Of a stretch of DNA of 64,000 nucleotides, positions 14,001 to 61,399 are shown piece by piece. This stretch comes from Okamejei kenojei. Its lineage: Eukaryota. The number at the start of each line of letters is the position of its first letter. The first letter of the stretch is position 1. Both the position numbers and the translations under genes were made by a program. The stretch is taken from positions 25,544,001-25,608,000 of the forward strand of contig CM069159.1 of the NCBI GenBank assembly GCA_035221665.1, read 5' to 3'. The notes under the pieces are model-generated. The model did no database searches. It saw only the letters and a program-made list of their open reading frames with translations, and was not told the origin of the DNA.

Positions 14001-17000
14001 AAAGTGTCTAATTCTCACCAACTTGTCTATTGAAACTGCTGGGGCAAATGCACAAGTGAACGTGGAATTTCACAGTGGAATTACAATGAGCAAATATTTT
14101 ATAAGAAAAATGAACAAAGTGATTTCCTAAATGTTGGAGGGTGTTATAAACCTAACAAATATATTTTGAAATTTGGGAATCATTTAAGAACATTTAAAAA
14201 CAGGAAAGGTATTGTTTATATTAAATTAAGCTGCTAAGCACAGAAAATTATTTAGGGCGTCCATAAACAATTAACATGATATTGGTTTATTATTGTTACG
14301 GGTACTGAGAGGCAGCAAAAATCTTTGTTTGCGTGCTATCTAGTTAAATCATACTGTACATGAGTACAATCAAACCATTATGTAACTCCAAGAGCTAGTA
14401 CATAGAGAAAAATGCCAAAGTGCACAATTAGTGTTACAACGTTATAGTGTTATGGTAATGGAAAAAAAGAGCAGATTAAAAAAAAGTGCAAGGACTGATA
14501 TAGGTTGGAAGTTCAGAACTACACCCTTAGCTTATGGGAGGTCTGTTAAGTAGTCTGATAACAGCGGGGAACAGCACTTTTTGAATCTGGTGGTACATGC
14601 TTTCAAACATTTGCATCTTCTGCCTGATGGGAGAAGGGAAATAACCAGAGTGCAGCATGGTTCTTTATTAATTTGGCTGGCTTCCTGAGGCAATATGAAG
14701 TATAGATGGAGTTGATGGGGGAGATGGCATTGCTGGATTGTGTAATGGACTGGGCCACATCCACAACTCTTTGCAATTTGTTAAAGTTGTTTGTCTTACA
14801 GTTGTTGCCAAATCAAGCTGTGATGCATTCCAATAGGATGCTTTCTATGGTGCATTTGTAGAAGTTGCTAAGAGTGTTAGAAGACATACTGAACTCCCTG
14901 AAGGGTAGTGAATACTTTGAAGTCACCCCAAATAATGCATTTAAAAAGCAGCTCTGGGGATAGAGGACATATATACACACAAGCAAATGAAATTTGCTTG
15001 GTATGGAAACTATAAACAAACTAGAAAGGTGTCCCAACTTGTGAGCTATCATTATAAAATTCTGGTGACAGGATGGCCATTTGGGTTGACAGTTCACATC
15101 TGATCTTGAATACCAAATATGTACCTTTCAGAAGGCTCTGCTCTTTTCCTTCTTTCTTCAAGATTTAGTTCCCTGGTATCTTCCTCCTCCTTCGAATACA
15201 AATATGAGATCAGAACAATACCTATTGATGTTATTTAATAAAACTTACACCATGTCAATACTTTCTTGCCTTGCTGTTGCACATTTTTAAATCAGTGTTT
15301 ACAGAACCCAAATCTCGGCGATCACCGTACGTCCTAACTTTTCTTTATTTAAAGAATACTTGAGATCAATCGTTTTTTTGTCCAAAATGCACTCTTGCAT
15401 TCAACTGCTTCCAGGGTAGACATAAAATGCTGGAGTAACTCAGCAGGACAGACAACAGCTCTGGAGAGAAGGAATGGGTGATGTTTCGGGTCGAGACCCT
15501 TCTTCAGACTTCTTGGTTCTTGACCCGAAACGCCACCCATTCCTTCTCCCCATGTCAATTTTATCCTCGAGACGTTCAATTTGACTTGTTGGATATGGAT
15601 TGTTATTTACAACTTATGTTGGAGATCTCTATTCGGCTCACATATTATCAAGTTTATAGTCATTGTTCATATCTCTCACATGCGCAATAACTCTCAGAGT
15701 TATTACAATTAATACAATCTACTGAAATCAACATAACAGACTAAAATGAATCTCCCGTCTTGGTCCTGAAGCACTATTTTGACCTGAAATTGCCACATTT
15801 ACTTCACACCCCCCTCTTCCCCAGCACAAATGCTACTCAACCCACTGAGTTTCTCCAGAAGAGTGTATGTTGCTCCAAATTCCAGGATCTGTATTTGGGT
15901 CTCCACTGAAATTACTTGCAATGGCACTTGATATCAAAATTTGATCCTAAAATGATCAGACTTCAAATTTATGCCACTAATTCTTACAGATCATTTTCAA
16001 CAATTAAAATACTGCCGTTAAAATGGAGGTCGTCCTCCCTAAAGCTCAGAGCATTTGTTTTTTAACTGCAGGTTAAAGGAATAACGCTCTGAAAGTAATT
16101 TAGCTACCCCAAAGAACAAAATATCGATTTTATCCTCTAGTATAAGCAGATTGCCAATATTTCCAATTACCTTCATGCATCAAAAATATAGAAACTGATT
16201 GTACCTATGATGCATAAACATTAAAACATGGTTAATGATTTTATCTGACGGAGGATTCAATCAATTACAGGTACAGATATCTATGGACTGTTTTACAGAG
16301 AATGCTTGAGGATGTTCCAGAGCATTTCACAGACAATGACGAACTCCTCAAAAATGTAATCACTATTACAGCGCAGGGAAATATCACAGAGAAATTAACA
16401 AGAAAACATTATTTATTGGCATTAGTTAAGCAATAATTATTGTCCAAAATCTTTGGGGAGTCCAATGCTTTTCTTCAAATAATGCCCTGGGGAATTTTAC
16501 ATCTGCTCAAATAGTTCGGGAGTCAAACCACATTAATGACGGTGCTTCCAATCAGCTCCAATCTGTACTACACAACATTCTCAGCCTCCATTAAGTACTG
16601 AGAAGGAACTTGAACTCATTACTTTCTGATTCAAATGGGATGCTGAATGTTTAGAAAAGGGTTGAGAGTTGTGGGGTTCAACTGGGAACAGAAACACTGG
16701 GCAGAAGATCACGTCATATGATGGAGTCCCTTGCTTACTTTCACTGTCTTATGGTCTATCTATGCTCCTATCTATTACCAGCAGTATTTTGACATTTTAA
16801 TAATTACGACCAGTTTAAAAGGAAAACTGTTGTTTACGCAACCCCATACAAACTCATATTTCCTCCCAATCCATCCAAAATAGTAGGCAGTCATTTAAGC
16901 AAACCCCGGGAAGTTTGTATTTGCTGGTACTCCACCAACCTGCAGCAAAATTTTAATTTGCCATCACCTGGGTATAAAATAGACGATAAAGAAAAAATAC

Positions 17001-20000
17001 ACAAGATGTAATAGAATAAATGAAGGGTGTAAAATGACATTTGTGATAAAAATAAATCAGCATAGATAAGAAAAACAGCCAAAAGGTTTCATAGGGAATC
17101 AGTGGGAATGGGAGTAATCAATGGGGATAATCAGCTGTCGGGGAATGATCAACATGTGTGTAGTTTAGTTTAGAGAGAGCACGGAAACAGGTGCCCTCCC
17201 CCCCCCCCCTCGATCTCCCACTCCCACTAGTTCTGTGTTATCCCACATTCTCGTCCAAACCCTACACACTAGGGGCAAATTGCACATCTTTGAGATGTTG
17301 GAGGAAACCAGAGCACCTGGAGGAAAGATACAGGGAGAACGTGCAAACTCTGCACAGACAGCATCCAAAGTCAGGATTGAACCCGGGTCTCTGGCACTGT
17401 GAAGCAGCAGCTCTACCAGCTGCACCACCCTTGATACTTTTGTTAGTTAAAAATAGCCCACACTTTCTTTCAGTTAGAGAATAGTCTCTTCAAATGTTTA
17501 ATGAAACACTATGCATGTGTGACTGGTTGGAATAACCTTTACGCCCTATTTAAAAAAAAATAGAACTTCTAAAAACGCCTTCTTATTAGCTGATTTGAAT
17601 CAATGGAAAAGGAAGCTGTTGCTTTTATATTGCAAAGGAACATTTATGCTTCCAATAAATGGACCTGCATGTACACTCATGAGAGGCAGGCAATGTTGGA
17701 GCATCTCAGAAGGTGAAAATGAGAAAATGTACAATGGTATGAAATTAACGCTTGATAAAGTGTAACTGCTTCCTGAGAGAATTGAAACTTTGATGGTTTG
17801 AGGACTATGCCAGCTGAACATGTTCAGACATGTTTTGTGCTCTCGCCATAAATATTAGGCCAAAAGCAAGTGAGCAAAAAAAAAAATTGTGTTTCTGTGC
17901 CGGTGCATGTGTTAAGTAACTTGAGAACATTCGAAGGAGGGAAGTATAAATTAGCCTCCAGCTTCTGGGTTCAAGCTCACGCCAGATTGCAAAATGCTGT
18001 TGGTTCACATGCTTGATCAATGGTGTTTTATCATTAATGTCTACTATTCTTAATGTTTAGCATTTTCTGAGTCATTTGTAACTGTCACTGTATGTCATGT
18101 TGTTACTTGTGGGCGGAGCACCAAGGCAAATTCCTTGTATGTGAATACTTGGCCAATAAACTTAATTACTTTTTTTTAAAGAAGGAACTGCAGATGCTGG
18201 AGAATCGAGGGTACACAAAAAGCTGGAGAAACTCAGCGGGTGCAGCAGCATCTAAGGAGCGAAGGAGATAGGCGACGTTTCGGGTCGAGACCCTTCTTCA
18301 GACTGGTCAGGGATCAGGGAAACGAGAGATATAGACAGTGATGTGGAGAGATAAGGAACAATGAGTGAAAGATATGCAAAAAAGTATCGGTGATAAAGGG
18401 AACAAGCCTAACTTAATTACTTAGTCTCTAAAGATAAGAATAAATGCTACATGTATAGCAGTGACTACTGAGTACTGAGCTGAGGTACTGAATCACCAAC
18501 TAGAGAGCTGTCCTAACGGACCACCTACCTCATTGGAGTCCCTCAGACTATCTTTTATCAGACTTTATCTTACACAAAACGTTATACCCTTATACTTTAT
18601 CGGTATACTGTGGAGGGCTTGATTGTAGTTATGTATAGTCTTTTCGCTGACTGGATAGCACACATCAACACTGTACCTCAGTACACGTGACAATCATAAA
18701 CTAAACTACGTACGTAAAAGAACAAAGTGAACTTTATGTTTAAGTAACCGGAGTGGTTGATGCTAATACTGAATAGCGAAAAAAAAAAAATGAGAAATAT
18801 TCTGCTTCTCCAAAACGAATGAAAAATAATTGTGCATTTGTTAACATTTTAAATTGCAAGTTTAAGAATATTTCTATGGTCATCTGGGATAGTTGAATGC
18901 AGCCACCACTTCATACGATATTAATTCCGTGAATGGAGTTATGTAAGTCCTCATTCATAACCCTTTAGTACCTAGAAGGTGACTCTGCCATCTGGTCTTG
19001 GAGTGCCAGTACAGACACAGAAATAGAAATCTCTAAAATAGCCACTAAGTCATGGGAATTTCTAAACAGAACCAACAGAAGGAATCCCCAGCATCATGCC
19101 GTTAAAATATAATTAAACTCAATTATTTTTACGACTGATTGCTTTCCATTAAATAATTCCTCCTGGCCTGTGGTAGCAACTTGTGATCTTGTTCTTAACT
19201 CTGACTTAATTGAAATTAACTTTGCAAAGTTGGAGCACTATCTTTACTGGATACCAAGTACAATTTGATTTTGTTTTAATAAGAGATGCGTTACTGAAAT
19301 TAAACTATGCCTTACAGTAATTGTATTGAATGATTACCATTGTTCAAACTCAATTACCTTCTTCTATAAAGTTATTGGGCTACGTTAGTTACCCAAACTG
19401 ACAGAATTTTCAATTAAATAGCCTCCCGCCATGGAAGGTGAATGTAAATGTTTAACTTCCAAAGGGATCTGAAAGGTATTTCTCCTCACAAAAGGTTCTG
19501 GGTTTGACCTGTACTGGGCATGACTCCAGAGGTTTCAGCTATTCTTCATGCAAGCCTGAATAGCAAGTATCAATGGATCATTCAACTGCGAAGAACAGAA
19601 GTCAAAATTGACAATATCTTCACTGACATGTGCCATTTCCAGTGCACAGAGGAGAAGGGAATAATCTTATTGGCACACTGGCTAGCATTTGCAAACTCAG
19701 TGCACACTATGGTCTGAGGAAGTTATTAGCTTTAATAGCTCACTTTCACAAAGGAAAACACATTTCCCAGGAGAATCTTCAAAGAATGTTTAGAACAGGC
19801 GACATTCTATGTGATCATCCCAGCAGCCTCTAAGCTATCTGCAGATCAATTGCTATGAATGATATAATAGCGAGCTCATGATCAGTGCTGAAGTTGATGG
19901 GTGCATGAATTGCAATCTGCAAAGAGTAGAAAGCGAGCATAAAATGTCTATAAAAATGTAAATTAATTCAAAGGGGATACCTCTCCTGTGCACTCTCCTG

Positions 20001-23000
20001 CCAGTCATCAGCCCGTGGAATTGCTTTGTATATTAGTCTACTGCCAACAGTATGGACATGGCATCATTGCTAATTGCTATAAGAAATTACATTCAGCCTT
20101 TTAAAGCTAAACTGACATATTTGACCAATGAATAAACTACATTAATAGCTGCTTTGTGGCCTAAGCTGTCACCATCCTCTATTGTATTTAATTTAGAAAC
20201 TGGAGATATTAAAGTGACAAGGACGTGCTAAACTGGAATGTCAATGAAACCTATCAGTACTCTCTCCACTGAAGGAACGACAACCTTCAGTCCATCTGTC
20301 ACATTTAGCTACTTTTAACTTCCCTTTTCAATACTGGGAGAGAGGCAGAAAGAGAGCAGACGGTGAAAAGCACTAAGTTGTAGTTAGATGGTAAAATAAT
20401 GGTTTCAAGAAAGCAATTCAGTGTCAAAACAAAGAACAAAAGGGGGCAATTAACAATTTGTAGGGGAGTGGGAAAGATGGCTCGACTGCTGTCTTTAACT
20501 ATAGGGCCCACAAATGACTAATCACAGAAGGCGGCTACACAGCAATAAAGAAGTGAATCTGTGCAATTTAAAAGTTCCCAAATCTGTCACATGTCAAACA
20601 AAATAATTTAAAAATAGAGCCCTATTGTGAAGAGTTCGAGGGCACTTTTGAAAATCAATTGAAATATAGGAATATTTGACCTTTGATGCAAATGGTAACA
20701 CTCATGCCGGTAAAAGAGCTTCTGGATTCACAAGACTGCCACATGTTGATTAGGAATCCTTAGTTCCTTTATGGGATAAGGTTTGGAGTCAGAAGAGTTT
20801 CTACAGTTTCTGGAAGCTGCAAAATACAGTTGTCGCTGTGGCAGTGAAAGATTTGGGGAGTAGGGCTAGGATGCGTTTTGACCAGTGTTTAATGTAACCC
20901 GTGAAAAGACAGGCATAGCTGAGGCTCATGCGAACACCCATGGCTATATCTTACGCCGAGAGAAGTCAAAAGAAAAGTTGTTGAGAATTTCTGAAAGTTC
21001 TGACAGGCAGAGGAGAGCGAAAGTTGAGGAGTAGACTGGGTGTTTTGTCAAGGAACCGTGATCAGGTGCGGTGTGATGGAAATCCCTTGAATAGACACTT
21101 CAGAAATAAATATAAGCTTTTGCACATTTATTACATAAATACAATTTAATTACAGTGTAGTGGAAATTAAGTGATGTACTTGAAAAAAAAAGACTTTAGT
21201 TGAAAATTGGTACCATCACTGCAATATCATTGACCTATGTTCTAACTAAACCTTTTCAAATTACTTCTCTCCTTATTTCAATTCCATCGTTCACACAATT
21301 CTGACACTCACTCCTCAATCTCCTCCCCAGCAAACCCTAATCATGAACTACTCCTTCTTGGCCAATATACTCCAGCATCACCAAAAACCAAAGCAATGCT
21401 GTCATAGTCACAGAGTCATAAAGCGTGGTAATAGGCCCTTTGGCACAACTTTCTCCTGCCAACCAAAATGCCCCTTCCACCTACACGCATTGGACCCAGA
21501 TCCATCCACACCTTTCATATCTATGTACAAATGTTTTTTAAATGTTTTTATCGAACCAGCTACTTCCTCTGGCAGCTCATTTCATAACCCACCATCCTGT
21601 TGGGAAAAGGTTGCCCCTCAGCTTCCTATTATATCTTTCCCGTCTCACCTTAAACCTACGTCCTGTGGTTCTTGATCCCCTACAATACAATGGGTAAAGG
21701 ACTCTGTGCATTCACACTATCTATTCCCCTCGTGATTTTATACACCTCTACAAGATCATTCCTCAGTCTCCTACGCTCCAAGGAATAAGGTTTTAGACTG
21801 CTCAATGAAACCAAGTTATTCATGAAATTACTGTCATTATTTGTAACACCTAGAGCACTCTTTCTCATTGTTATCAGGTGGATATACACTAGATGAAACA
21901 TGTTGCCTCTTTCATTGAGCATAGTGTGCTATTTGACCTGAAACGCAGGAAAAGGCTCATATTGCTGCTAGTAACATTTCACCACTCTGCATTGAAATGT
22001 ATCTGTTCCTATCCAAAACCCATATCTGTGCTTTTGTTAATTCAATTTGACTTCTCCAGACTTAGCTCAGGTGGTAACCTAAATTCTAAGAGACGTTATT
22101 TCTCACTATAGAGTAAAAAGAGCATTTTTTGGAGGCTCCAAACACCTATTGTCTCTTTTTTAAAGAAGGAACTGCAGATGCTGGAGAATCGAGGGTACAC
22201 AAAAAGCTGGAGAAACTCAGCGGGTGCAGCAGCATCTAAGGAGCGAAGGAGATAGGCGACGTTTCGGGTCGAGACCCTTCTTCAGACTAAAGAAGGGTCT
22301 CGACCCAAAACGTCGCCTATCTCCTTCGCTCCTTAGATACTGCTGCACCCGCTGAGTTTCTCCAGCTTTTTGTGTACCACCTATTGTCTCTTGATGGTGG
22401 CTGAGGAGAAGTAGAGCGTTCTCCTTGGTACTGCTTATTATTTTCCTCTAAGTATTATATATAAATCAGATTACCTGGTTATTTGTTGAGGTGTGTCTGC
22501 AAATTGGCCACCAGAGGCATGGAAGGCAACAAATACATCACAACTAATATATTGGTTTAGTTTAGAGATACAGCATGGAAACAGGTCTCTTGGCCCACTG
22601 ACTCCACGCCGATCACTGATCACACTAGTTCTGTTTACCCACTTTCCCTACTAATTAGAGGCAATTTAGAGAGACTAATTAAGGTACAAACTTACACATC
22701 TTCAGGATGTGGGTGGAAACCAGAGCACCCAGAAAAAAGCAATGTGGTCACATGGAGAACATGCAAACTCCACATGGACAGCAGATTGAACCCGGATCTC
22801 TGGTGCCGAGGCAGAGTCTGAAGAAGGGTTTCGGCCCGAAACGTTGCCTATCTCCTTCGCTCCTTAGATGCTGCTGCACCCGCTGAGTTTCTCCAGCCTT
22901 TTGTGTACCCTCGATTTTCCAGCATCTGCAGTTCCTTCTTTAACAGATTTATCAGCTGCACCACCTGGTTGTAAAGTGCTTTGAAATATTTCAAAATTAC

Positions 23001-26000
23001 CAAATAAAGCAAAATCTTTCCTTTCTTAATTACTTATGGCCTGTAGGTTAGCGATCAGCAGGTCAGCATCAGAGAGCTACCTTTTTGTGGCTCCTGGGTA
23101 CTTTTATCCAAGAATGAGTTTCATTTAATATTTCAACGCTGCAATAAAGTGCTACAGCAGTATAAAATTAACCACTTCACTTGCTTAATATCACTCATGA
23201 CAAAATTATTTGTTTTGCCAAGAGCACCAGCTTATAAACTAAACAAATACATTGGAAGCATAAAACAGTCTCTGGTGACAAGAGAATTATGTGCTTTACA
23301 CTGGCAAGCAACACAGATAAATTTACACCAGTTCCTCACATCTGTTGTTAGAGGGAGATCTTGAATCATCTGTCGTTAGAGGAAGCTACCATACAATGCT
23401 CAGAATGTTGAAAAACAAAGAAATATTAATACACAAATAGACAGAACAGTATTATTACCAAAAGGGAAGTGTGAGCAATGGAGGCAAGGCAGTGCCCTTT
23501 GTGATATCAATTGCCAGTTTAGTTTAGAGATACAGCATGGAAACAGGCCCTTCGGTCCACTGAGTCTACACCAGCCAACAATCACCCATACACTAGCTCT
23601 ATTCTACACACTAGGGGCAATTTACAGAAGCCAATAAACCTACAAAGCAGCACGTATTTGGGATGTGGGAGGAAACTGAAGCACCCGGAGAAATATGAAT
23701 CTTTAGAGGACTTTACAGGCCAAATGCAAGGAAGATGTTTTCTCTGGCAGGGGAGTCTAAGACTAGTGGGCAAAGGGTAGATTATTTGGGACTGCTATGA
23801 GAAGTTTCTTGACTGGTGAAACTTTGGAATTCTCTAAACCCAGAGGGCTGTGGAGGCTCAGTTGCTGTGTACGTTCAAAACAGATCAAAAGAAGAATGGA
23901 CATTTGGGAAAATTGCTGCTGACTAGAAGATTAGTCATAATCCTGATGAATGGCAGAGTAGCATTGCCATGGATTCACCGAGTAATTCAGCATGGAAGAA
24001 GCCCTTCGGCCCAACTCATCCATGCTGACCAATTTGTTTGCCTGAGCTCGTCGCACTTGTCTGCTACTGGCCCGTATCCCTCTGCAGCTTTCCGATCTAT
24101 GCAGCTGCCTTATAAATACAATTGTACCCATTTCTACTGCTTTCTCTGTACAGCTTGCTTAATATACCAAACACTGCCTGTGCAAAGACGATTGTCCCTC
24201 ATGTCTCCTTTAAATCGTTCCCCTCCAGCCTGCTTTTATTTCATATATCCTTAGACAAGACACAATAGTAAATGGGATCAGTGAAGATAAAGCAAGTAGA
24301 AATAGTACTTGATGGTTGGCATAGACATGGGGTGTACTTTAGATTTTAGAGACACAGAGTGGAAACGACCAATGATCACCCCGTATATTACCACTATCCT
24401 AGACATTGGGGGCAATTTAAAATTTACAGAAGCCAGCTAATCTACAAATCTGTACTTCTTTGGAGTGCAGGAGGCAACCGGAGCACCCACAGAAAACGCA
24501 CGTGGTCACGGGGAGAACAAACAAAATCTGTAGAGACAGCCTCCGTAGTCAGGATCAAACCTGGGTCTTTGGTGCTGAAAGCCAGTAACTACCGCTGCAC
24601 CACTATGCCGCCCGTGATGGGCTGAAGAGACTCTTTTTGTGCTACAGACTCTAGGACTCTGTGACTCTATGGGAAACAAGTCACCAGATTTGAGGCAAGT
24701 GGAAGAATGGAAGTTGATCAAGATTAAGATTTTGGGAGTAAAATGTAAGAAACAAGGGTTTAACCATCACGTTAAACTGTCACCTCCTCCATGACCAGAG
24801 TGAGCACCACCGGAAATTGGAGGAACAGCACCTCATATTCCGCCTAGGCAGTCTGCACCCTAGTGGTATAAACATTGAATTCACCCATTTCCGATAGTCC
24901 TTGCTGTCTCCTCCCCTTCTCAGCTCTCCCTCAGCCCTCGGGCTCCCCCCCCCCCCCCCCCCCCCCACCCCCACCCTACATCAGTCTGAAGAAGGGTTTT
25001 GGCCCGAAACATTGCCTATTTCCTTCGCTCCATAGATGCTGCTGCACCCGCTGAGTTTCTCCAGCACTTTTGTCAACCTTCGATTTTCCAGCATCTGCAG
25101 TTCCTTCTTAAACTCTTATGCACAATTGGAATATTGTGTGCAGTTCTGGTTGCCATACTAGAGGCAGCACGTGGGTGCACTGGAGAGGGTGCATTGAAGA
25201 TTCACCAAGACAATGCCTGTGATGGAATACTTCACTTGAAGCATATCTGAAGGTGAGCAATGATACAGAACTCATCCGCCCCCCCCTAAAAAAAATGTTT
25301 GTTCCAACTACTACACTGCTGTAAATCACTATTTAATCAAAAATTAACTGCACACTGCAAATTTGAGAACTTAGTCTAAAAGTATTATGAAGAGCTAGCA
25401 GCTGTAACCCATTTCATTATTAGAAAATGGATTGCAAAGTTGGCAGTTTTATCTAAATTTTATGTTGTATTCCTTCAACAGACTGAACATATGTTATTGG
25501 TTTCGAATGAAATAAATTGAGAAGAATCCTGTCAGGTTGTACTTGCAAACAACTGACACAGACACAATTATTAGCACAAGGGCTGGCCATGCAAAGCAAC
25601 TCCACTACACAAAAGCAACTTTACAACTCTCAAATGATTTGATGCTTAGGCATTGGAAACATTTTTGATTAAGATAACTAATAATGCAGCTCACCAGGAC
25701 ATAAAAGATGAAATATCATTTTTATAAACAGAATCACAATTGTTGGCATGGTAAGCTAATACTGATGCGGCCTTATATCGACAAAATCCATCATGTAACC
25801 AGCTTTCCAAGGGTTCTTTCAAAATGAAAGCACATCAATGACATAACCATAAGTAAATGCTCTATTTACAAAAGAACAAGACATGTGCCCTTTGATATAA
25901 GTATCGGGAATAATTACTTGCCAGGACTAAGCTGATAATAGGCAGGGAAGTAGTGACCGGACAATAAATGGCCTCCGTGTCCATGAGGTGAATCACGAGA

Positions 26001-29000
26001 CGCCACAAATTCCCACTTCCAATTGTTCTCCAAACAAAACATCTAAGAGAAATTATGATTTTGAAAACATGGTATCTCAAGAATATTTTCTGCACAGTTG
26101 GAATATTGTGTGCAGTTCTGGTCGCCAAACCAGAGGAAGCACGTGGGTGCACTGGAGAGCGGCAGAGGAATTTCACGAAGACAATGCTTGTGATGGAATA
26201 CTTCAGACCCAAGGAAAGATTTGATAGACCTGGTTTCCTTTTAAGCAGAGGAGGCCAAAGGGGAAGCTTGAAATACAGAATTATGGGAGATATGGGTTGG
26301 ATAGATAGTAAAAAATATATATTTTTCACACAGAGGGTGGTTGCCATTTGGAATACAGTGCCCGAGAAGACAGTGGATGGTGGTAGTCTTGGAACAATGA
26401 AGAAGTATCTGGATAAGCTACAGCACCTTGTAGGAGCAAGAATGGAAAGGCCACGCAGAGTTGGTGTTCGAAGTAGCAGGTGATTTATTAAGACTCGTGC
26501 TTACGCTTTGCTCCTATACACTTGAATTGTCAAGGCACTGTAGGCTAAGGGTTAAAGGCTAGTGAAGGAAATGGGATTAGTGCAGATAGGTACGTGATAG
26601 TCAGCATTGATATGGTGTGCTGAAGAGCATGTTTCGGCACTATTTGACTCTATGAGTATGACCACACAACATCATTAAATAGAGGGTAGCCTACTGATTG
26701 ATTGATTAAAAGATACAGCAAGGAAATAGGACCTTTAGCACACTGAATCGACGTCGACCAACGATCACCCATTCCACCACGTTTGTAACGTTCCCTACAG
26801 ACAAAGGCTAATTAATTTATAAACCCAACTTTGGATGTGGGAAAACCACCAATTCTCTTGTCTGGGTAGATATGAGATGTGTCATGACATAACCTGAAGA
26901 AAAGGGGAATTATGTGATATCATATCCCATACCGAAGGTTACAAGGATAGTTTATTTAGCTACTTGTATCACTGGTATTTGTGGAACATTATTGTTCATA
27001 ATTTAGCTTAGTTCTGCTTATATAACAAAGACATCAAAAGTGTTTGGCCGCAAAGTACCTTGGAATTAATCTGAAACAGACGGTCGGAACTGAAGAGGTT
27101 CTTTCTATTGAACATTTACCGTTTCCACTCAGTCTTGCCAGTACCCATTTAGATGTGTAGCAAAGCTTGGTAGAAAATGCAACCCACTGTGGCAGCCAAG
27201 GTAATTTATCCCACCTCACCGCACGAAAATCCACTGGCCTCAAGAACATCTATAAAGATGAACATCAATCACCTTTCTTCTGAAATACAAACCATGAAGC
27301 ATCACCAAAAATCACAGTTGGCAGATTATTAGTCTGTATGGGTGAGATCATTTGAGGGAGCTGGTTGTAGCTTCAAGCATTACACAATTTAAAAGTGAGC
27401 CCTAAAGGAGATGGTGGCTTTTGTGGTCTTGCAGTGGAGATTAAGAAAATACTCCTACCGCTGTGGAATGTCCCACTGCCTCTGTATGTGGCTTGCATTG
27501 ATACAAATATAGGTTGGTCTGAAATGTCCTGGGACATTGTGTCAACAAGTTAAATCTAGTTTATTGGGCATCATTCTGTACCTTAAAAATGGTCTTTACG
27601 TTTCAATGAAAGCCAAAAAATTAGGAACTTCACAAAATGCATTAATGTCCCTTGGAAGCAATTTTGCCTCATTAGAAAAATCTCAATACAACACTACATT
27701 CATAATTCACAGCTGGGAGGCTCCTAAAATGTCAGGATTACCACTAGAGTGAAATTTACAAGGACTAAAGCAGATCAATGGTGATTTCAGCGTGTGAATT
27801 ACTGTGATTACTTTCGGTAATTGCCATACAATTTTGGAGAAAGTAATCACAAACATTGCTTCCAGAATTGTAGATGTCTCGTGTTCCATTCTACATTTCC
27901 CCAAATATTTTATCGATCAATTTTAGTGCAATAGAAATAGAAAATGCTGGATATTCTTAATATGTCAGCCATTATTTGTGACTGCAAAACAGAGTTAGTG
28001 TTTCTGGTTGTCCATACAGATTTTTAGCTCAATGGATACTCCATCAGAACTAATGAAAAGACAAGGACGAGAAATATTTTTTGTGGTCTTTGCACGGATG
28101 TTGTGAGACCTGCTGAATTTTACCATCTATTCCAGTATTTATTGATTGAAACCAAAATTTATAAAAATATTCTTTATTAAAATCTGACAATGTGCACTTT
28201 AACCACATGCGATTTTTTCTATTACAAATCTCAAATCGTGGAGTATAGAGGCAAATACATAACATGTCNNNNNNNNNNNNNNNNNNNNNNNNNNNNNNNN
28301 NNNNNNNNNNNNNNNNNNNNNNNNNNNNNNNNNNNNNNNNNNNNNNNNNNNNNNNNNNNNNNNNNNNNNNNNNNNNNNNNNNNNNNNNNNNNNNNNNNNN
28401 NNNNNNNNNNNNNNNNNNNNNNNNNNNNNNNNNNNNNNNNNNNNNNNNNNNNNNNNNNNNNNNNNNNNNNNNNNNNNNNNNNNNNNNNNNNNNNNNNNNN
28501 NNNNNNNNNNNNNNNNNNNNNNNNNNNNNNNNNNNNNNNCAGAGTTTGAAGAAGGGTCTCGATCCGAAACGTAACCCATTCCTTCTCTTCAGAGATGCTG
28601 CCTGTCCCGCTGAGTTACTCCAGCATATTGTGTCTACCATACTAATATATTACTGCCTACCTTACGCAATTTTATTTTCTGTCATAATATCTTCAAATGC
28701 TGAAGAGAATTATCTTCTCATCATAGTGTGATGAGATACTTTACATTATTCGAGACAGGAGTCACAGCAGTAGTTTACCATCTTACTGAAGGTAGCCTCT
28801 CTGACATTGAACAAAACTGTCCTTCACAACCGCACCAAAGCATCAACCTAGATTTTGTAATTAAATCTCTGTAGAGTGTCAACTATTGTTCCAAATGCAC
28901 AAAGATGTAGATCTGTTAATTCTGGATCTGACATTTTTAGATATTAATTTTTAAACTGGGGCATACCAGTAGGTATTTTAGTACAAATTAAGTAATTTCT

Positions 29001-32000
29001 GTATGGAAGCTTTAAAAGTACAATCACAGTAGCACAATCTCGGTATTAAAGATAATAGTCAGTTGGGGAACAAAGAGAGATTTATGGCCTTCTGCTTCGT
29101 GAGACATTATCTTTGTTTCTTCAGGCCATCTCTACTCAAACATAGAGACATGAACAATTTTGTTTCTAATGACTGCAGGAGCATAACAGGGGAGCCAATT
29201 GGCCCATAAACTTCAAATGTCCTTTGAACCTTGAACAGCAAAAAAATGTATAAGTGTATGGCAAACTGCTGCAATGGTTCTCAAATGATTGTCAGATAAC
29301 GTTAACTGCACGGCAGGTGAAGGGAAAGCAACATTAAAAAGAGAGATTGGACTACTATAACAAACACTGCTGTATGCTGTTGGGCCAACAGCATCAGCAT
29401 CATCATATCTCATATAGTGGCAATTTTAAAATACTGAAAAATCACTATGGCTAGCATTTTTGCAACCTCGGTGGTATTTTACATAATTAGATTTCCTGGT
29501 GTAGAGTGGACATTTATTCCAAATCAAAGTTAATGCTTGGATATTTTATATCCATAAATTACACAAGACTCGTAACAAAAATCCCTTGATAGAAGGGCCT
29601 CGAGCTACAATGTTTGTTGCACTAATGTGAGATTCACTTCTTGCTGGTCCAGAATGTACAGTGCGCTGTAATGACTTTCTAAATCAACGTTTAGTTTGAG
29701 GGGAATTACCAACTCAAAATACATTGACGTTAGAATTTGTTCCGATCAGAAGGCAGGAAAAGTAGTGTTGCATTATTATTATTACCATTTCTCACCCTTC
29801 CTTCCAATTTATAAGATCGCGGGCTCAAGAAATATCTCGGCATTCATGTCTTGCAATGTGATCTAATAACCATATAACCATATAACAATTACAGCACGGA
29901 AACAGGCCCTCTCGGCCCTTCCAGTCCGTGCCGACCATTTGTTTTCCCCTAGTCCCATCTACCTGCACTCAGACCATACCCCTCCATTTCCTTCACGTCC
30001 ATATACCTATCCACTTTACTCTTAAATGTTAAAATCGATCCTGCCTCCACCACTTCTGCTGGAAGCTGATTCCACACAGCCACCACCCTCTGAGTAAAGA
30101 AGTTCCCCCTCACGTTACCCCGAAACCTCTGTCCCTTTATTCTCATGTCATGCCCTCTTGTTTGAATCTTCCCTACCCTCAATGGGAAAAACGTATCCAC
30201 GTCAACTCTGTCTATCCCTTTCATCATTTTAAAGACCTCAATCAAGTCCCCCCTTAACCTTCTGCGCTCCAAAGAATAAAGACCTAACTTGTTCAACCTT
30301 TCTCTGTAACATAGTTGCTGGAACCCTGGCAACATTCTAGTAAATCTCCTCTGTACTCTCTCTATTTTGTTGACATCCTTCCTATAACTAGGCGACCAAA
30401 ATTGTACACCATACTCCAGAATTGGTCTTACCAATGCCTTGTACAATTTTAACATTACTTCCCTACTCCTATATTCAATGCTCCTATATAATAATGAGCA
30501 ACCACAGAAGGAGTGCTGCATCGTCAGTGATACTCTCTTTTAAATAGCACACAAAACAAGAACTCCACCTGCCAATGTAGATGGAGGTAGAGAATACAAT
30601 AGCAACATCTGAAGAACAGCAGGGGAGCTTGCTTAATGAAGCATTAATTGCCAATTAAAAATAACCAAATACATTATCTGGTTATCTCCCTTATTGTTGT
30701 TTGTGAACTTTGGTGAATGTTAATTGGTTGGCATACTTACCTTCAAAATAACTTTGGTTATACTTGAAAATAATCTAGTGGCTGGTTCACTACATAAATG
30801 CATGAACTATATCAGTTGTAGCTACTTATTTCATTGATTCATACCAGCAGGACAATCCAGAAATCAGGAAAATGTAATACTGACAACCTAATCTCAACAG
30901 GGATTTTGAATAAAATTAGCATTCGGGTGCTTACCCTTCTTTAAGAAATCCGATGGCTATTAATAGAGGCGCTAATCCAAAACCTGTAATTCCTAATGAG
31001 AAATGGTTTACCGAGGAGTAATGCACATAATACCCAAACCCAGAATGTTGTGCAAAATGGATTGTCCATTCCTGTTGCTGAAGAGCTTAATGATCAGAAT
31101 TGTATTAACTATACTTGCAATTTGCTGGTGTTCAATAGGAACAGCATTTTCAATACTAGGAAATATAAGATAACTACTTTAAAGGCACTATAACATGAAA
31201 AGGCAAAATACAAATGTTTTATCGATGATGCTCAGAGACCTGTTACATTTGAAACCTGATCTGATTGTACCAACTACAATGCTGCATTCTACTTCACATC
31301 TATCTCAGAAGATCTTTAAACAGTTGTGCATAATTCAGAATCTGGAATTGGAATTATTATCTGGGAAATGCTAGTTATTGCTCCCAATAATTACTGAAGA
31401 CAAACTGATATGTGGTACTATATCAGATTCAAATTGAATTGTGGTACTGCATCAAAAGCAGATAAGTAGAACAAAGGTCTGAAGAAGGGTTTCGACCCAA
31501 AACGTCACCCATTCCTTCTCTCCAGAGATGTTGCCTCTGAGTTACTCCAGCATTTTGCGTCTACCTTAGATTTAAACCAGCTTCTGCAGTTATTTCTTAC
31601 ACACAAGTAGAACATTTGCTGTGATCTCCATTCCCTTATTTTCTGACTTCCATACTTAGCCATAGGATACGCACAAGATATTTTAACTATTAATGGAAAC
31701 TCCATGCCAGGGTTTGGAAGCCTCATGAGTATTTTTCTTCTCTTTTGAGGGACAGGCAACTCATTTTCAACTCTATGTCTTTTCCCAATTGTGCATGGAC
31801 AACTGGGAGCTTGTTCTGTGGAAATGCAACATGTGATCATGCAGACATTTATTCAATGCAATAACGTTGCTTCAAGGGAAATGTAAGATGCCTGTACTGA
31901 GCACAGCAGGATGAGGGTGTTGGCTTATAGAAGTGCACAAGATTATGATAGGAATAGATAGAGTAAATGCACAGAGTATTTTAGCCAAAGAAGGGGAACC

Positions 32001-35000
32001 AAGAACCAAAGGACATACGTTTAAGCTGAGGGGGCAAAGATTTAATAGGAACCTGTGGGGTAACTTTTTTTTTTACACACAAGGGGTGGTGGGTATATGG
32101 AACAAGCTGGCGCAGGAGGTACCTGAGGCAGATACTATTACATTTACAAAATATGTGGACACATACATGGATAGGATAGGTTTGAAGGATATGAGCCCAA
32201 TGCAGACAGGCGAGGCTAATGTAGATGCAGCATGCTGGTTGGAGTGGCCAGGTTGGGCAGCAGGGCTTGTTTCCACATTGTGTGACTCTGTGACCCAATG
32301 TATTCCAACACTTTAAATGGTTTTATCCGCAGTGTATAATCTGCACTTCCTTTAAAGAGTTCCTACAGATTCATTCTTTATGAAGAGTTCAATCTAAATT
32401 ATGAAATTTAGCATGCCTTAAAAATCATTCTCAAACTTCACAAAAAAAATAACTGTGCACTTGAAAACCGGAAGGAAGTACTGAGAAACTTCAAAGATAG
32501 ATAAAACGCTGGAGTAACTCAGCCGGTCAGAGTATAACTGAAGAAAAGGAATAGGTGACGTTACAGGTTGAGACACTTCTTCAGAACCTTCCTTCACTCC
32601 TGAGATGCTAAATGAGCCACTGGGTTACTCCAAATTTTTATGTCTATCTTTGGATTAAACCAGCATCTGCAGTTCCTTCCTATACATATAAAGAAGCTTC
32701 ATGAGTTGACCACATTGCTCTCTATGAAGCCTGACAGTGTGCTCATTAGTATTTACAAATATTTTTATGCATTCCCATCAACTGTGATGTTGTGTGCCCT
32801 GTTCCCACTGGCAGTGGCGATGTCACTTCCTGCAGAGCTGAGCAGATGTTAAAGGGGGCTTAACTCTTCTTCTCCTCCATGCGCCTACACCTTCCGCATT
32901 TTAAATAGATTTAATTATATACCAGGGCCCGACATTTTAGTATACATGAAATCTGGACTGCAGTGAAATCAGGCCAGGATATTAAGATATTCAAAAAAGC
33001 TTATCTGAAGCAGGCTGAGGGATCAATCTGTTGGTTTTGTATATTTAAATAGAGCACAGCTGCAAGGCTACTTAATCTTTTGAAACGAGTCTCTGTAGAA
33101 TGTCGTAGTCAACAATTTAAATAAAACATGCTCAAACACTCTTTCCTGTAGATTTGCAATTAAATTTTAAGGAAAGTTCCAAACTAAGAGAAATGGAGCA
33201 GAAAGCCGTCCTTGTTTCTTTTATCGAACAAGCGGGTTTGGCTGTCTTCCTTCCGAACATAACAACGTTTCAGATTCGTTGTTTGCCCCCATCAGCTTAC
33301 CAAATGAGGATTTTTTGTTTCTGAGGCAAATAAGTGCCAAGAAGATACTCTACAATAGAATGGCTTGCTTAATTCTACCCAAACCTAACAATATTCATCT
33401 GTATAAACAGTCACTGAAAAGGGAATAGGAATGGGAATCCAGGACAATATTTTATGGTTGGGCTTTTGGATAGGGACAAGATGTGCAGGGATTGGACCGG
33501 TATGCTTAGGCCTGTGGCAATAGTTTTATCTTGGCCTCATGTTCAGCACAGACACGATGGGCCGAAGAGTCTGATTCTGTAGCGTACCATTACATGTTCT
33601 ATTGTCAAATATCTGTTGGGGATACGAGAGCCAATTGTAATTGACTCTGCTATCCTGTCTTCTAAAGAAGTGCAAGATTTGCACCTCACTTAATGCTCCA
33701 TTTCTATTGCGTGCCTTAAAGGCAAATGTAATACTCTGTTTTTCACCATGTGACTCTAAACCTTTAACCTCAACTTGCTTGAATTTTCTGGTGAAATATG
33801 CCAATTAGAAATCAAGCTACTCCTATTTACCAATAATTTGAGAAATGGCTTTCTAAAACACGGATCCCATTGATTTATCCCAAATTTTATTAAATAAAAC
33901 TCAAACAAAATCTATAGTAGAGAAAATTAATTTGACAAACAGTAGGTTGTCACTGTATACAGGCTTTGACACAGCTATAAAACATTTGAGCTGCAATCGT
34001 ATGATTTATTAAACTACAAGAACATCTCGATTCAATTTATATTACTGCCTTGTGTTTCACTGCTGGTCAGCTTAGGATATAATAGCCACAACCCTCTCAT
34101 AAGTTATCTAGTCATCCTACATGTGCCAACATTGTGCCTGCTTTGCAGAACCGATCTTTTAGTTAAATAATAAAGGCTTCTCCTATCAGGTACAGGATAA
34201 TCAATTACATTATTTTCAGGGTGGTTCAGTTACTGAAAAATATTTTTTGGAGGAGAACAATTTATATAAATCAAAGGACAACTCTATTTTTAAAAAAAAA
34301 TACCCATCACAGAATCGGTTTGATTTTGTAACCAGTGCCACAACGTTACTGTTTGTAAGCTGCCAATAGGATGGCCAAGTGTCTAATTTATATTAGCTTA
34401 AAGAATTATAGGGTCTGTCTGTCTCCTACACCTCTGAGCAATAAAATTAGCTTTTAGGTAGAAATACAATGTTTATAAAGTACTCACAAAATTGTTATCG
34501 ATTTCATCCGATTCTTCAGAAGCCTGCAGATCTTTAAGTTGTTGGCTAGGTTCAGAGTCCTGTGGACAAATTGGAGCTTATTTAGTTTCAAAATGTGTAT
34601 GATAAACATGTTATTTACTGTTGCTCTGGTTGCATAATCAGAGGCAAATTAACAACTTGATTTATCCAGTCTAAGTTAAGAGATCCATTAAAGTGGAATG
34701 GAAAGATGAAGCACCCACGTTTTCCCCAAAAAATGCTTCCCCTACTTCATTGCAAATCAAGAACCAAATCTTTTTCATTTTTTATAACCTAATGTCATGC
34801 CGGATCTTGGGAGAAATTTTAAATTGTCCCATGGAAATGAATGAAACTTAGTAACCATTTTCTCATCCTAGTCATTTTCCACAATTAGCGATGAACCAAA
34901 ATAAGGTAAGCGTTCCCTCCACCTCCCTTATCTTTCGCCACCTCTACAAAGTCACCAATTGGCTGATGTCTTTGAAATTTGACTCATATTAAAATGTTGT

Positions 35001-38000
35001 CAATCTAGAACTGCCCAAATTTGAGAACATTTCCAACCAAACATACTATGTTCACAAGGCACGGCCTTTCCTTAAGCACACGATAGTGGACAGGTCAAAA
35101 CACGTTCATTTGCTGTGAATGCGAGTTGGCTCATCTCATTCACATGAGTGTGCTTTTCACAGGCCACACTAGAATTTGATGCAAGGTGCAGTTATGCAAG
35201 GTGATATTCATCAAAAGGGTGGTAACGAGGACATGCTGATCGTTCGTTTGGATGGCGACTTATTGCTGGTTCCATAACCAAGCAGAGATCTGATAATATT
35301 TCTCCTTTAACCAGCATTAGTGAATCAAATCAATTAAGATTTTTGTACCACAGTTTGCTTACTTTTGACATGAGTAACATGGATCTTGGAATTGAACTGA
35401 TTTTGGAGTTCAAAAGAATCGTGCTGTTATTGGAGTTCTGAAATGTTTAATAGACGTAATATAAATGCAAGTCTTTTTTAGTAGCGGCTCACATATTTAG
35501 TAACTCGTCTCCTCAACACTAGTGTTTCTCGGGTAGTTGTCTTTAACTGGGGACGTGAGTAAAACTACACGGCAACTGCTCATCTCAGTGGTGCTGTCTT
35601 CTTTTGTTAAAGGGTGATATGTGTAATATGGGTGTTTAAGTGATCCATGTTCTAGGGTTAAAACCCTAATACTTAATTGAAACTCTGATGGATCAGTTCA
35701 CCCAAGCCTCCCCCAATTAACATAACATTGTTCCTGATCAGGGAAATAAAATTCCCTCAGCGGGTTCATACATTGGAATTCTGCTGTGGAAAAAAACATT
35801 TCCAACATACAATGGAGAAACTATTTCCTAAATATTATTGTAACATATTCTAATACCAAGACATGTTTGAGTATGAATGACATATTTTCTTTGGAATTAG
35901 ACAAAAGATGATATTTAATTTTAACATGGAATAGCATGCACGATTGAACAACTATAAAGGGCCGTGTACATGGATAGTGACTGCAAATTCTTTAAACAAA
36001 TAACCATGTTTGTTTTCTGGCTTCCCATTGGATTGAATTGTATAATGCATTTCTGCATGCGTCTCCATTGACCATTAGTTGTGATGATGCCAAATTAAAA
36101 TTCTGTAGACTTTGCAAGATAATGGGATGAAAATGTGAAATTATGAGATTTTTTATGAACACCTAACAAAACCATCTACAGAGGAGAGTTTCAAAAATAT
36201 TGGCCAGAACATTTTTTTGGATAGGTCACAGATGGTATTTGCTGTCTGCTGTCTAATTATATCTTTGCCAACAACTTGCTTGGAACAGCTTACACAATGC
36301 CAGATGTACTGCTGTACACCTAACAATACATTGGTAAAGATATCTCATCTAGATTAGACCAGGTTATCATGCCAGATTTGACATCATCCTTCCGTGGTAT
36401 TTGGCAATTGGAATAGCATTGTCGATTGTCCTTCAAATGGCCACAATGTGGAAAGTGGTGTGTGAAAAAGCATCTCAAATGGTGCAGTAACTCCAGCAGT
36501 TCAGCATCTCTAGAGAACACGGATAGGTGATGATTCAGACAGAGACCCTTCTTCAGACCCAATCTGAAACATCACCTATGCATGTTCTCCAGAGATGCTG
36601 CCTGACCAGCTGAGTTACTCCAGCACTTTGTGTCCTTTTGTGTATTAACCAGCATCTGCAGTTCCTTGTTTCTATACTTGGGTTGGATGGAGAGTTGATG
36701 CTGTGAGAATACAGAACAGTGCAACATGGGAAAAAAGCCCTTTGGCCAATGATGTCTGTGCAGAACATAAAGCCAAATCAAACTAATCCCTTCTGCCTTC
36801 ATATGATCCAGAACTCATCAGTTATCCAAACTCAATATTTTCCCATTTGTCCAGAGGGTGACTAAAGCCACAAAGTAAAGATATATATATTAAAATGCTC
36901 ACGGCATTTTTTAAATGAAGTGTGGAGAGATGATTGACACATTTGGAAATTGGTTGCTAAATGGAGCAACATTTAACATCAAAATAAGCATCCAAATATA
37001 TTAACGTTGCCAACTTTATTGAGAATACGTACATTTTCTTTAATTTGACTAGTTAGGCTCATAAACCATTCTTCAAAATATTTGACGAGTGAAGAATAAA
37101 ACATGACATTTCAAAGTAGGTTCAGTGACCAGCAAGGTAAATATCTGACAAATGTTAGGAATATTGATGTATTTTGGGAAGAACAGACAATAAGAATGAA
37201 TTGCCCTTTGGAGAACAAATATTAATCTTCTTTAAACTACTTTTTTTTTTAAAAAGGCACTGAACTAATTAACTGACAGGAATGGTGACTGCAGACTAAT
37301 TAAATCTGAATGCAATTGATTTCCAGAAATTTTTATTCGAAGCTCAGCATTACTGTACTTCAAAAGATTGTAAAACAAATATAATGAAGACAAATGGTGC
37401 TGTCAGCTGTGAGTAGTGGTTACTTGGCTGGAATTCTTGACAAACTAATTAGTTAAAACAATTAAAAAATACAATTTCAATTTGAATAGGAATACATTTG
37501 CACTGCATTTATAATGTTGGATTGAGAAACGATACACCAAGCAGGTAAAATGCACCATTCTAAACTGATCAGGATGCTTTGTATCCAAGGAAACCAGGGA
37601 AATGGTGAAGAGCAGAAACTCCGAATGACATGATCAAGTTTAAAAAATCCAAGGAAACCAGTTCATATTAAGGGTAAACCAAAAGACTTGCATTTAAATA
37701 GCACCTTTTTTTTCTTGTGTTTCTCTGCGGCTTCACAGGCAATAAAATAATGTAAGCTGCTATAATGTAGCAGACCACAACAATTAATTTGTGCATAAAA
37801 GATTCCTTGGACAGCAATACAATTATGACCAGTTAATGCATAATAGTGACAAAGCGGCATTTCCTCATCTCTGAATTGGAGTGTTTGCGTGATCAGGTTA
37901 ATTTAAAACAATTACACATATGTTTCTCAAGACAAGAGTTAGAATTCTAACAATAGTAGGATGATATTTCGAGAACAATAGACCAATTCTTTTCAATCTG

Positions 38001-60745: not shown

Positions 60746-61176
60746 CTGTGAAAAATAAAGATACAGACACGGGTGATAGCATTGTGACACTTGCACAAAA
60801 TGGACGATAGAAAGCTTAGAAGTATGTGACCTAGTACCAATGTGTTAAAGTCATGCTGTTAAATGATATCCATACCAAAATCTATGTTAAACGAAACAAA
60901 CCTAAACCACTTATATTTCTACCATCTGTTCCCAACAACATTAACTTCTACCCAGACACTATACAAAACATACAAAGAATTTGCCCATACCTATTACTCA
61001 TGAAGAATTGGAAGACTTCAATTCACAAGGCTATTCAACGATAAAGGAAAAGTCATTGCAAAGCCTGATGCTGCCTTATTGCATGCACATGCTGCAAGCT
61101 CTGCATTGAAGTAGGATTCAGAAGTTATTTTCAGGACTGAACATAGAAATCCTTGAACTGACTATTGGATTGTTTA

Positions 61177-61399
61177 ATTTAAGAAAGAACTGCAGATGCT
61201 GGAAAAATCGAAGATAGACAAAAATGCTGGAGAAATTCAGCGGGTGAGGCAGCACCTATGGAGCGAAGGAATAGGTGACGGTTCGGGTCAAGACCCTTCT
61301 TCAGACACTTGAAGAAGGGTCTCGACCCGAAACATCACCGATTTCTTCGCTCCATAGATGCTGCCTCACCCGCTGAGTTTCTCCAGCATTTTTATCTAC
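61177..61399. mobile_element. Fold-back Penelope-derived element
   Basis: 13-bp TSD ATTGGATTGTTTA at 61164-61176 and 61400-61412; ~90-bp inverted arms. Confidence 0.9.

Follow-up and report, generated by a model that had tools for sequence, protein, structure and literature searches.

A fold-back insert in a CEP164-like intron of the skate Okamejei kenojei: the probable trace of a single, recent insertion by a Penelope-like retrotransposon

How does a palindrome of two nearly identical arms, tailed on one side only and enclosed by one exact repeat, come to lie in the intron of a skate gene? This question is raised by a locus of Okamejei kenojei that we analysed within a window of 64 kb, the whole stretch of DNA under study (64,000 nucleotides; features in Table 1). 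The original prediction had described the locus as a fold-back with a 15-bp target-site duplication (TSD) and a one-sided tail, and this description was confirmed. Two exact copies of the 15-mer CACCTATTGTCTCTT, which has no other copy on either strand of the window, enclose a 220-bp insert in which the 3' terminus of a Penelope-like element (PLE) occurs twice, head to head. The paired arms, 22195-22285 and 22287-22377, are arranged around the symmetry centre 22286 and agree at 88 of 91 bases, so the predicted arm coordinates were correct within 1-2 nt; base 22194 can additionally pair with the first base of the TSD. The extra tail of 37 nt is present on the left arm and absent from the right, and at the junction the tailless arm shares a 2-nt CT with the left arm. 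Among 3000 random pairs of flanks with a similar spacing, only 3 had an exact repeat of at least 13 nt; the search windows were of 50 nt, narrower than the 85-nt windows of the fold-back duplication search.

The arms differ at three positions of the right arm: 22289, where the core CTGAAGA has become CTAAAGA, 22307, where CGAAA has become CAAAA, and 22339. The first two are the core losses that had already been described, and in the sense of the element all three are G>A. The majority base of the family at 22289 is G (88% of the X1 depth), and the change there may represent a junction base and not decay. It was also observed that, read on the minus strand, the three differences are C>T; this strand is the presumed cDNA strand of the right arm and also the strand of the host pre-mRNA. 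The left arm shows no differences of this sort against its single-arm sibling at 18174. An APOBEC-like origin of these changes on the cDNA strand is not claimed by us, as there are three of them, one in a CpG and one at the junction.

Table 1. Positions of the insert, its relatives and its host intron in the window (dot, no strand assigned)
Feature	Position	Strand	Basis
Left TSD, 15 bp	22143..22157	.	single copy at the empty site, X6 contig 17
PLE tail, 37 nt, outer 3' end of the element, left arm only	22158..22194	-	33-37-nt tails in three sister fold-backs
Body of the tail-bearing arm, PLE pLTR terminus	22195..22288	-	identity with the 18174 copy
Minimal type I hammerhead-like core, activity predicted at most	22258..22285	-	descriptor match (PMC4209133, text available in part)
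Inverted arm without a tail, stopping at the inner 3' end (...TGTGTAC)	22287..22377	+	sequence comparison
Right TSD, 15 bp	22378..22392	.	exact 15-mer, empty site
Single-arm sibling: identical 131-nt terminus and ~105 nt of upstream element, 13-bp TSD	18159..18422	-	
Sister fold-back, 14-bp TSD, tailed and tailless arms, re-copied junction segment	38003..38160	.	
Sister fold-back, 15-bp TSD, tailed and tailless arms	46692..46929	.	
Sister fold-back, 13-bp TSD, tailed and tailless arms	61164..61412	.	
Related-subfamily copy, endonuclease C-terminus running into a tailed terminus	24784..25112	+	tblastn P0007, 78% over 36 aa
Decayed, 5'-truncated PLE: RT-like fragments, CX4CxxC linker, GIY-YIG	57358..59373	-	same terminus at the tailless site
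Host intron of a CEP164-like gene, ~25.5 kb	15193..40711	-	bounds are tblastn hit ends

The strongest evidence on the history of the locus comes from related genomes. Contigs of four of the 24 listed runs (X1, X4, X6 and X9; runs with a low share were left out) were compared over 21800-22550. A contig of organism B (X6 contig 17) joins window position 22142 directly to 22378, with sides of 316 and 173 letters. The join, at record positions 202 and 201, holds one 15-mer and lacks 235 bp, and the contig diverges from the window by about 2% (10 substitutions and 1 gap in 489 positions). The empty site that had been proposed as a check of the prediction is thus present in organism B. Therefore the 15-bp duplication is a true TSD, and the insertion is younger than the split from organism B. 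Such a recent age is in line with the match of the left arm and its tail (22158-22288) to the copy at 18174-18304, which extends over 131 nt with no mismatch. In organism C, X9 contig 24 tracks the window up to 22157 and then continues with 87 other letters; an equal-depth contig resumes at 22447 and has a T>C at 22447 that is shared with X6. This pattern fits, indirectly, an empty site in organism C as well. Organism A carries the left junction of the insert: X1 contig 1 and X4 contig 9, each one small indel away from the window, run from the left flank through the 15-mer into the tail and reach 22181 and 22182; either sample may be related to the source of the assembly. For the right junction the evidence is the assembly itself together with the arithmetic of the empty site; the record-filtered contigs of X1 and X4 lack cover over 22398-22475, and among the pieces listed none spans the insert. 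Other joints and loose ends in this comparison stem from many further copies of the family, have short sides, and were left out of the evidence.

One would argue that the two arms were inserted independently, or that the palindrome is an artefact of the assembly, since the family is very abundant (64,764-77,770 contigs per run) and both chance adjacency and mis-joins are possible. However, a single TSD encloses both arms, the empty site removes both of them together, and the left junction is found on contigs of two samples of organism A. Additionally, the arms differ at three positions, the end of the right arm falls on a site that is defined biologically, and the same layout is repeated at three more loci. 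We therefore consider this explanation very unlikely.

The parent of the insert can be named from longer copies. The terminus lies downstream of a GIY-YIG ORF, on the same strand, in three copies of the window (57358, 24784 and 11077). The first of these is the sole long family copy in the window; it is 5'-truncated and enclosed by an 11-bp TSD (57347-57357 and 59374-59384). Upstream of it and outside its TSD, at ~59640-60010 of the minus strand, a GC-richer, repeat-like stretch was noticed. In Atlas the endonuclease matches best, at 0.96-0.97, to GIY-YIG clusters in which 12-22% of the members carry the family, and a skate homologue (P0006), 70% identical to the fragment of the window, exceeds the cut-off of the Pfam GIY-YIG family (PF01541). 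The decayed fragments of the window itself (10 and 2 tested) gave no significant Pfam match to either endonuclease or reverse transcriptase (RT). Two gene models of skates, P0006 and P0007, end in the GIY-YIG region of the element; one is RTP3-like and the other an uncharacterised protein containing an RT, and these ends are either annotation chimeras or exonisation.

Upstream of the endonuclease region, at 58394-58190, lie GxxMG and YIDD motifs, which we take to be the RT motif pattern of PLEs. Atlas returned mostly unnamed clusters for this region, one set having RVT_1 on 13% of its members at 0.92, and the RT call is weaker than the endonuclease call. The sequence FPCNCRRCNTC upstream of the GIY-YIG region is a CX4CxxC linker. 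In the available text of PMC8557442, a CX2-5CxxC linker between RT and endonuclease marks Neptune and Nematis, and judged by this motif the element is placed with Neptune/Nematis rather than with Penelope/Poseidon. The empty site, the link to GIY-YIG and the single subfamily of both arms bear out the predicted minimal product, one PLE transposition that left nothing but two inverted termini, tailed on one side and enclosed by a TSD. We are highly confident that the insert is a single, lineage-recent and most likely neutral insertion by a linker-bearing (Neptune/Nematis-type) Penelope-like retrotransposon.

The insert has relatives nearby. The terminus gave 28 nhmmer matches in the 64 kb, grouped into 22 loci, of which seven are fold-backs. 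Exact duplications of 13-15 bp bound four of the seven (22143, 38003, 46692 and 61164), and in the three others, which are more diverged, no duplication of at least 8 nt was found. All four TSD-bounded fold-backs have one tailed arm (37, 37, 33 and 37 nt) and one tailless arm that abuts the TSD, and all four tailless arms end at a common ...T(C)TAC/T site, at which the ORF-bearing copy at 57358 also ends. In three of these four fold-backs the nearest match of an arm is, outright or tied, its own partner, and at 46692 the partner is close to the nearest; by this comparison both arms of each pair are of one subfamily, and the loci differ among themselves. Rare variants common to both arms number at most one per fold-back (three of the seven pairs).

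Several similar units with inverted arms and 13-15-bp TSDs within 64 kb could also be read as a MITE-like, non-autonomous family with terminal inverted repeats, in which the palindrome moves as a whole. Yet the junctions, with microhomologies or short inserts, differ in all seven fold-backs, and the subfamilies differ too, which argues that fold-backs are made anew each time and are not copied as a unit. Furthermore, the ends are asymmetric, with a tail on one side, and single-arm copies carry similar TSDs (13, 10 and 11 bp). Of the 15 single-arm copies, 13 were searched, leaving out 15767 (too diverged) and 28543 (beside an N gap); five of them have a repeat of at least 10 nt, three at checkable boundaries. 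Within the window, the fold-backs share neither an internal structure nor symmetric termini, and a MITE-like origin is highly improbable.

The 5' ends of the family copies were inspected by eye. Among 20 anchored cores, 12 end no more than ~4 nt from the core's 5' edge, at (A)G|TCTGAAGA (e.g. 2749, 15508, 22286, 22817, 31478, 41733 and 61305), seven run on and one ends at an N gap. In several longer copies a pyrimidine-rich stretch ending in CAG stands just upstream of this edge, and its letters resemble those of a 3' splice site or of a fixed 5' end of the RNA. Further observations concern single places. The right arm of an older fold-back (32570-32605) begins approximately where hammerhead cleavage is predicted (ACC after GUC); this was seen once. 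Many X9 contigs over 22251-22288 connect 22288 back to 22251-22258 with 1-9 letters between, and these joins may come from hammerhead cores dimerised in tandem, or else from fold-backs with a start near the cleavage site. At 22815-22943 a tailed single arm of the same subfamily lies within a SINE-like repeat (presumably HE1/MER6-like) and has no clear TSD; this arm, at a distance of 526 nt from the left arm, shows 96% complementarity to it and is an alternative pairing partner. A 271-base N gap (28269-28539) stands directly upstream of a family copy; thus the assembly breaks at the family repeat at least once.

What is established for the insert is one event, a 15-bp TSD and two head-to-head PLE 3' termini that stop at the two alternative ends of the family. 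We regard two-ended priming as a probable source of such a fold-back. Nicks in the two target strands, made by the PLE protein and staggered by 15 nt, would each offer a 3'-OH from which the sense RNA is reverse-transcribed. The tailed arm would come from the outer start site, and the tailless arm from an inner start site that lies 37 nt further upstream. Both cDNAs would end close to the 5' edge of the hammerhead motif, the common stop of the family copies, and this edge may be the RNA 5' end if priming occurred in the 5' pLTR copy. The cDNAs would be joined via the 2-nt microhomology or an untemplated base (A), and host repair would fill in the second strands; an untemplated A at the junction would account for the change at 22289. 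The hairpin in the CEP164 pre-mRNA would be a by-product of insertion. Work on an anole PLE supplies biochemical precedents: according to the available text, the protein nicks and extends both strands in vitro and was modelled as a dimer, and reverse transcription starts internally at two sites, one on either side of the tail (PMC11167929). However, that enzyme is of a Poseidon element and the element of the window belongs to a different clade. It should also be held against two-ended priming that it is read from end products, and that three of the seven fold-backs have no recognisable TSD. Four tailed/tailless pairs out of four have P=0.06 under an independent choice of ends, and in vitro the anole enzyme shows no strand preference in its choice of start site (PMC11167929).

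The same PLE origin is kept if the inversion arose by fold-back self-priming of a cDNA or an antisense transcript, with endonuclease resolution leaving the one-sided tail. Such priming on an antisense template is the published reading of head-to-head PLE junctions (PMC3846280, in the text available), and the tail has been attributed in print to endonuclease resolution (PMC8557442, likewise in part). It explains why both arms are of one subfamily, and the geometry of two junctions agrees with it: at 22286 the arms meet near-symmetrically with a 3-nt loop, and at 61164 they begin within a few nt of each other. On the other hand, the junctions at 38003, 15408, 32489 and 36477 are asymmetric or have inserted or re-copied bases, and the primer at 22286 would be 1-2 bp long with a mismatch adjoining. 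Moreover, a DNA-templated copy should traverse the tail, whereas the second arm halts at the inner 3' end in all four cases, and in the anole element this end is a site where reverse transcription starts (PMC11167929, as far as its available text goes). Self-priming thus fits the near-symmetric junction at 22286, and is harder to reconcile with junctions that are asymmetric and with an inner stop that is precise; we consider it the main rival, though rather unlikely. At the junction 38070-38110, a piece of ~9 nt is re-copied from near the inner start site (GACA microhomology), which suggests, from its letters, a template jump before joining.

A more specific form of two-ended priming may be proposed tentatively. 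The ORF-less fold-backs could be footprints of an undescribed two-ended PLE integration, in which a dimer nicks 13-15 nt apart and the same RNA is copied twice, first from the inner start and, in a second round with strand displacement, from the tail end that is still free. If one RNA is copied twice, the outcome would have to be exactly one arm with a tail and one without. If true, the model explains the head-to-head inversion together with the one-sided tail and needs no antisense template. With no pair sharing more than one rare variant, the arm data do not discriminate between one RNA and two. A two-ended explanation of PLE inversions was not found in the literature searched, the anole paper included; this search mostly did not cover subscription papers, and an earlier printing is possible.

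The insert lies 6,951 nt and 18,320 nt from the flanking exons of the CEP164-like gene. A long hairpin in the pre-mRNA had been predicted, and folding agrees with it: the fold-back has z-scores of -22 (plus strand) and -24 (minus strand), with no shuffle equally good. Because the host gene is on the minus strand, the three arm mismatches become G.U pairs in the pre-mRNA, and the minus-strand fold has ~90 unbroken pairs. By this model, double-stranded RNA would form if the intron of the CEP164-like gene is transcribed.

The second arm had also been predicted to mask a ribozyme, and this notion is unsupported. The left-arm core (CUGAAGA-A-4-bp helix II-GAAAC-GUC) contains every element of the minimal type I hammerhead descriptor (CUGANGA, extra nucleotide, G10.1-C11.1, GAAA, palindromic 15.2-16.2, UH core; PMC4209133, from its available text), and the right-arm core, broken at two positions, is antisense in the host pre-mRNA. 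Helix I, by inspection, has 2 bp, below the ~4-5 bp of a minimal type I hammerhead, and the probability of helix II is 0.0 in the fold-back and below 0.01 even in the single-arm copy at 18174. A search of the window against Rfam gave no hammerhead family at E<=1. The available part of PMC4209133 likewise describes a 2-bp helix I in a hammerhead variant of D. virilis, and reports no cleavage by the lone metazoan minimal hammerhead tested, that of Schistosoma. Hammerhead cleavage is, moreover, dispensable for PLE insertion in vitro (PMC11167929, text available in part).

Could the hairpin be kept for a role in host RNA, as a substrate of editing, a source of small RNAs, an influence on splicing or a silencer of the ribozyme? 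Its location in the CEP164-like intron would be compatible with this, and so would the three substitutions, all of which are C>U on the pre-mRNA strand and preserve pairing as G.U. However, at least three changes in 91 nt at 1% have P~0.06, and they include one CpG transition and one junction base. The nearest exon is ~7 kb off, the fold-back is one among 263 inverted repeat pairs in the window, and helix II stays unformed even without the second arm. The insert is absent in two relatives, directly in organism B and indirectly in organism C, and an old host role is therefore disfavoured. We give this explanation very little credence.

The insert must also be placed among known systems, with the cited papers available to us in part. 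Inverted pLTRs, a one-sided tail of 30-40 nt and a TSD have been described for insertions of endonuclease-bearing (EN+) PLEs (PMC3846280; PMC8557442). In particular, the head-to-head pLTR, the tail at one end, the TSD around the whole unit and the hammerhead-like motif are shared with inverted-pLTR insertions such as that of Pen2a_Av (Arkhipova et al., 2013, PMC3846280; Craig et al., 2021, PMC8557442). In contrast to inverted-pLTR EN+ PLEs, the insert of the window has neither an ORF nor a direct pLTR between its arms and stands, with its 220 bp, at the extreme 5'-truncated limit; the TSDs of the fold-backs have 13-15 bp, compared with 8-10 bp in the rotifer PLE examples (PMC3846280; PMC8557442). 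Thus the inverted pLTR, the one-sided tail and the TSD are already published features of PLEs, and the insert is not unique, with 7 of 22 loci of the window folding back.

The element resembles PAc, the Poseidon of Anolis carolinensis (Frangieh et al., 2024, PMC11167929), in that both have two alternative 3' ends bracketing the tail downstream of the hammerhead motif. For PAc, nicking and extension of both strands are in vitro results, and the element of the window is of another clade, with its CX4CxxC linker (PMC11167929). Inverted insertions and TSDs are not discussed in the available main and supplementary text of that paper. Twin priming of L1 (Ostertag and Kazazian, 2001, as summarised in PMC10760644) is similar in that the target site primes a second time, microhomology joins the cDNAs, and the resulting insertion is inverted and enclosed by a TSD. 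The 5' inversions of L1 join an inverted 5' segment to a 3' segment (PMC10760644); unlike them, both arms of the window insert copy the same ~90 nt and start at fixed sites encoded by the element, with no long poly(A). Non-LTR retrozymes and minimal hammerheads are likewise short non-coding units derived from PLE pLTRs with a type I hammerhead core (PMC4209133; bioRxiv 10.64898/2026.07.22.740005). However, retrozymes are head-to-tail tandems with a hammerhead in each unit (bioRxiv 10.64898/2026.07.22.740005), whereas the insert is a head-to-head pair with one intact core, and we rejected its identity as a non-LTR retrozyme. Pairs of minimal hammerheads on opposite strands, 100-700 bp apart, have been noted in Schistosoma (PMC4209133).

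The fold-backs also carry a risk for annotation, as such units may be mistaken for miRNA hairpins or MITEs. Four sub-threshold Rfam matches (mir-789, mir-1756 and AEV_CRE) fall on 36509-36593, 38052-38148 and 46756-46897, all of which are fold-backs, the weak mir-1756 and mir-789 matches falling on two of them; therefore fold-back units mimic miRNA hairpins. We rejected these identities as hairpin artefacts, the weak matches being confined to fold-backs other than the one at 22143.

Taken alone, the locus is of little weight: it is a young intronic repeat, absent in relatives and one of several per 64 kb. The class to which it belongs is of greater interest. The mechanism of PLE integration is still called unresolved in the available text of PMC8557442 and PMC11167929, and the fold-backs form a clean natural record of it, with both ends, the junction and the nick stagger within ~250 bp. 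Therefore, a census in one skate genome could separate two-ended priming from self-priming, and skate genomes have very many copies on which two-ended integration may be tested.
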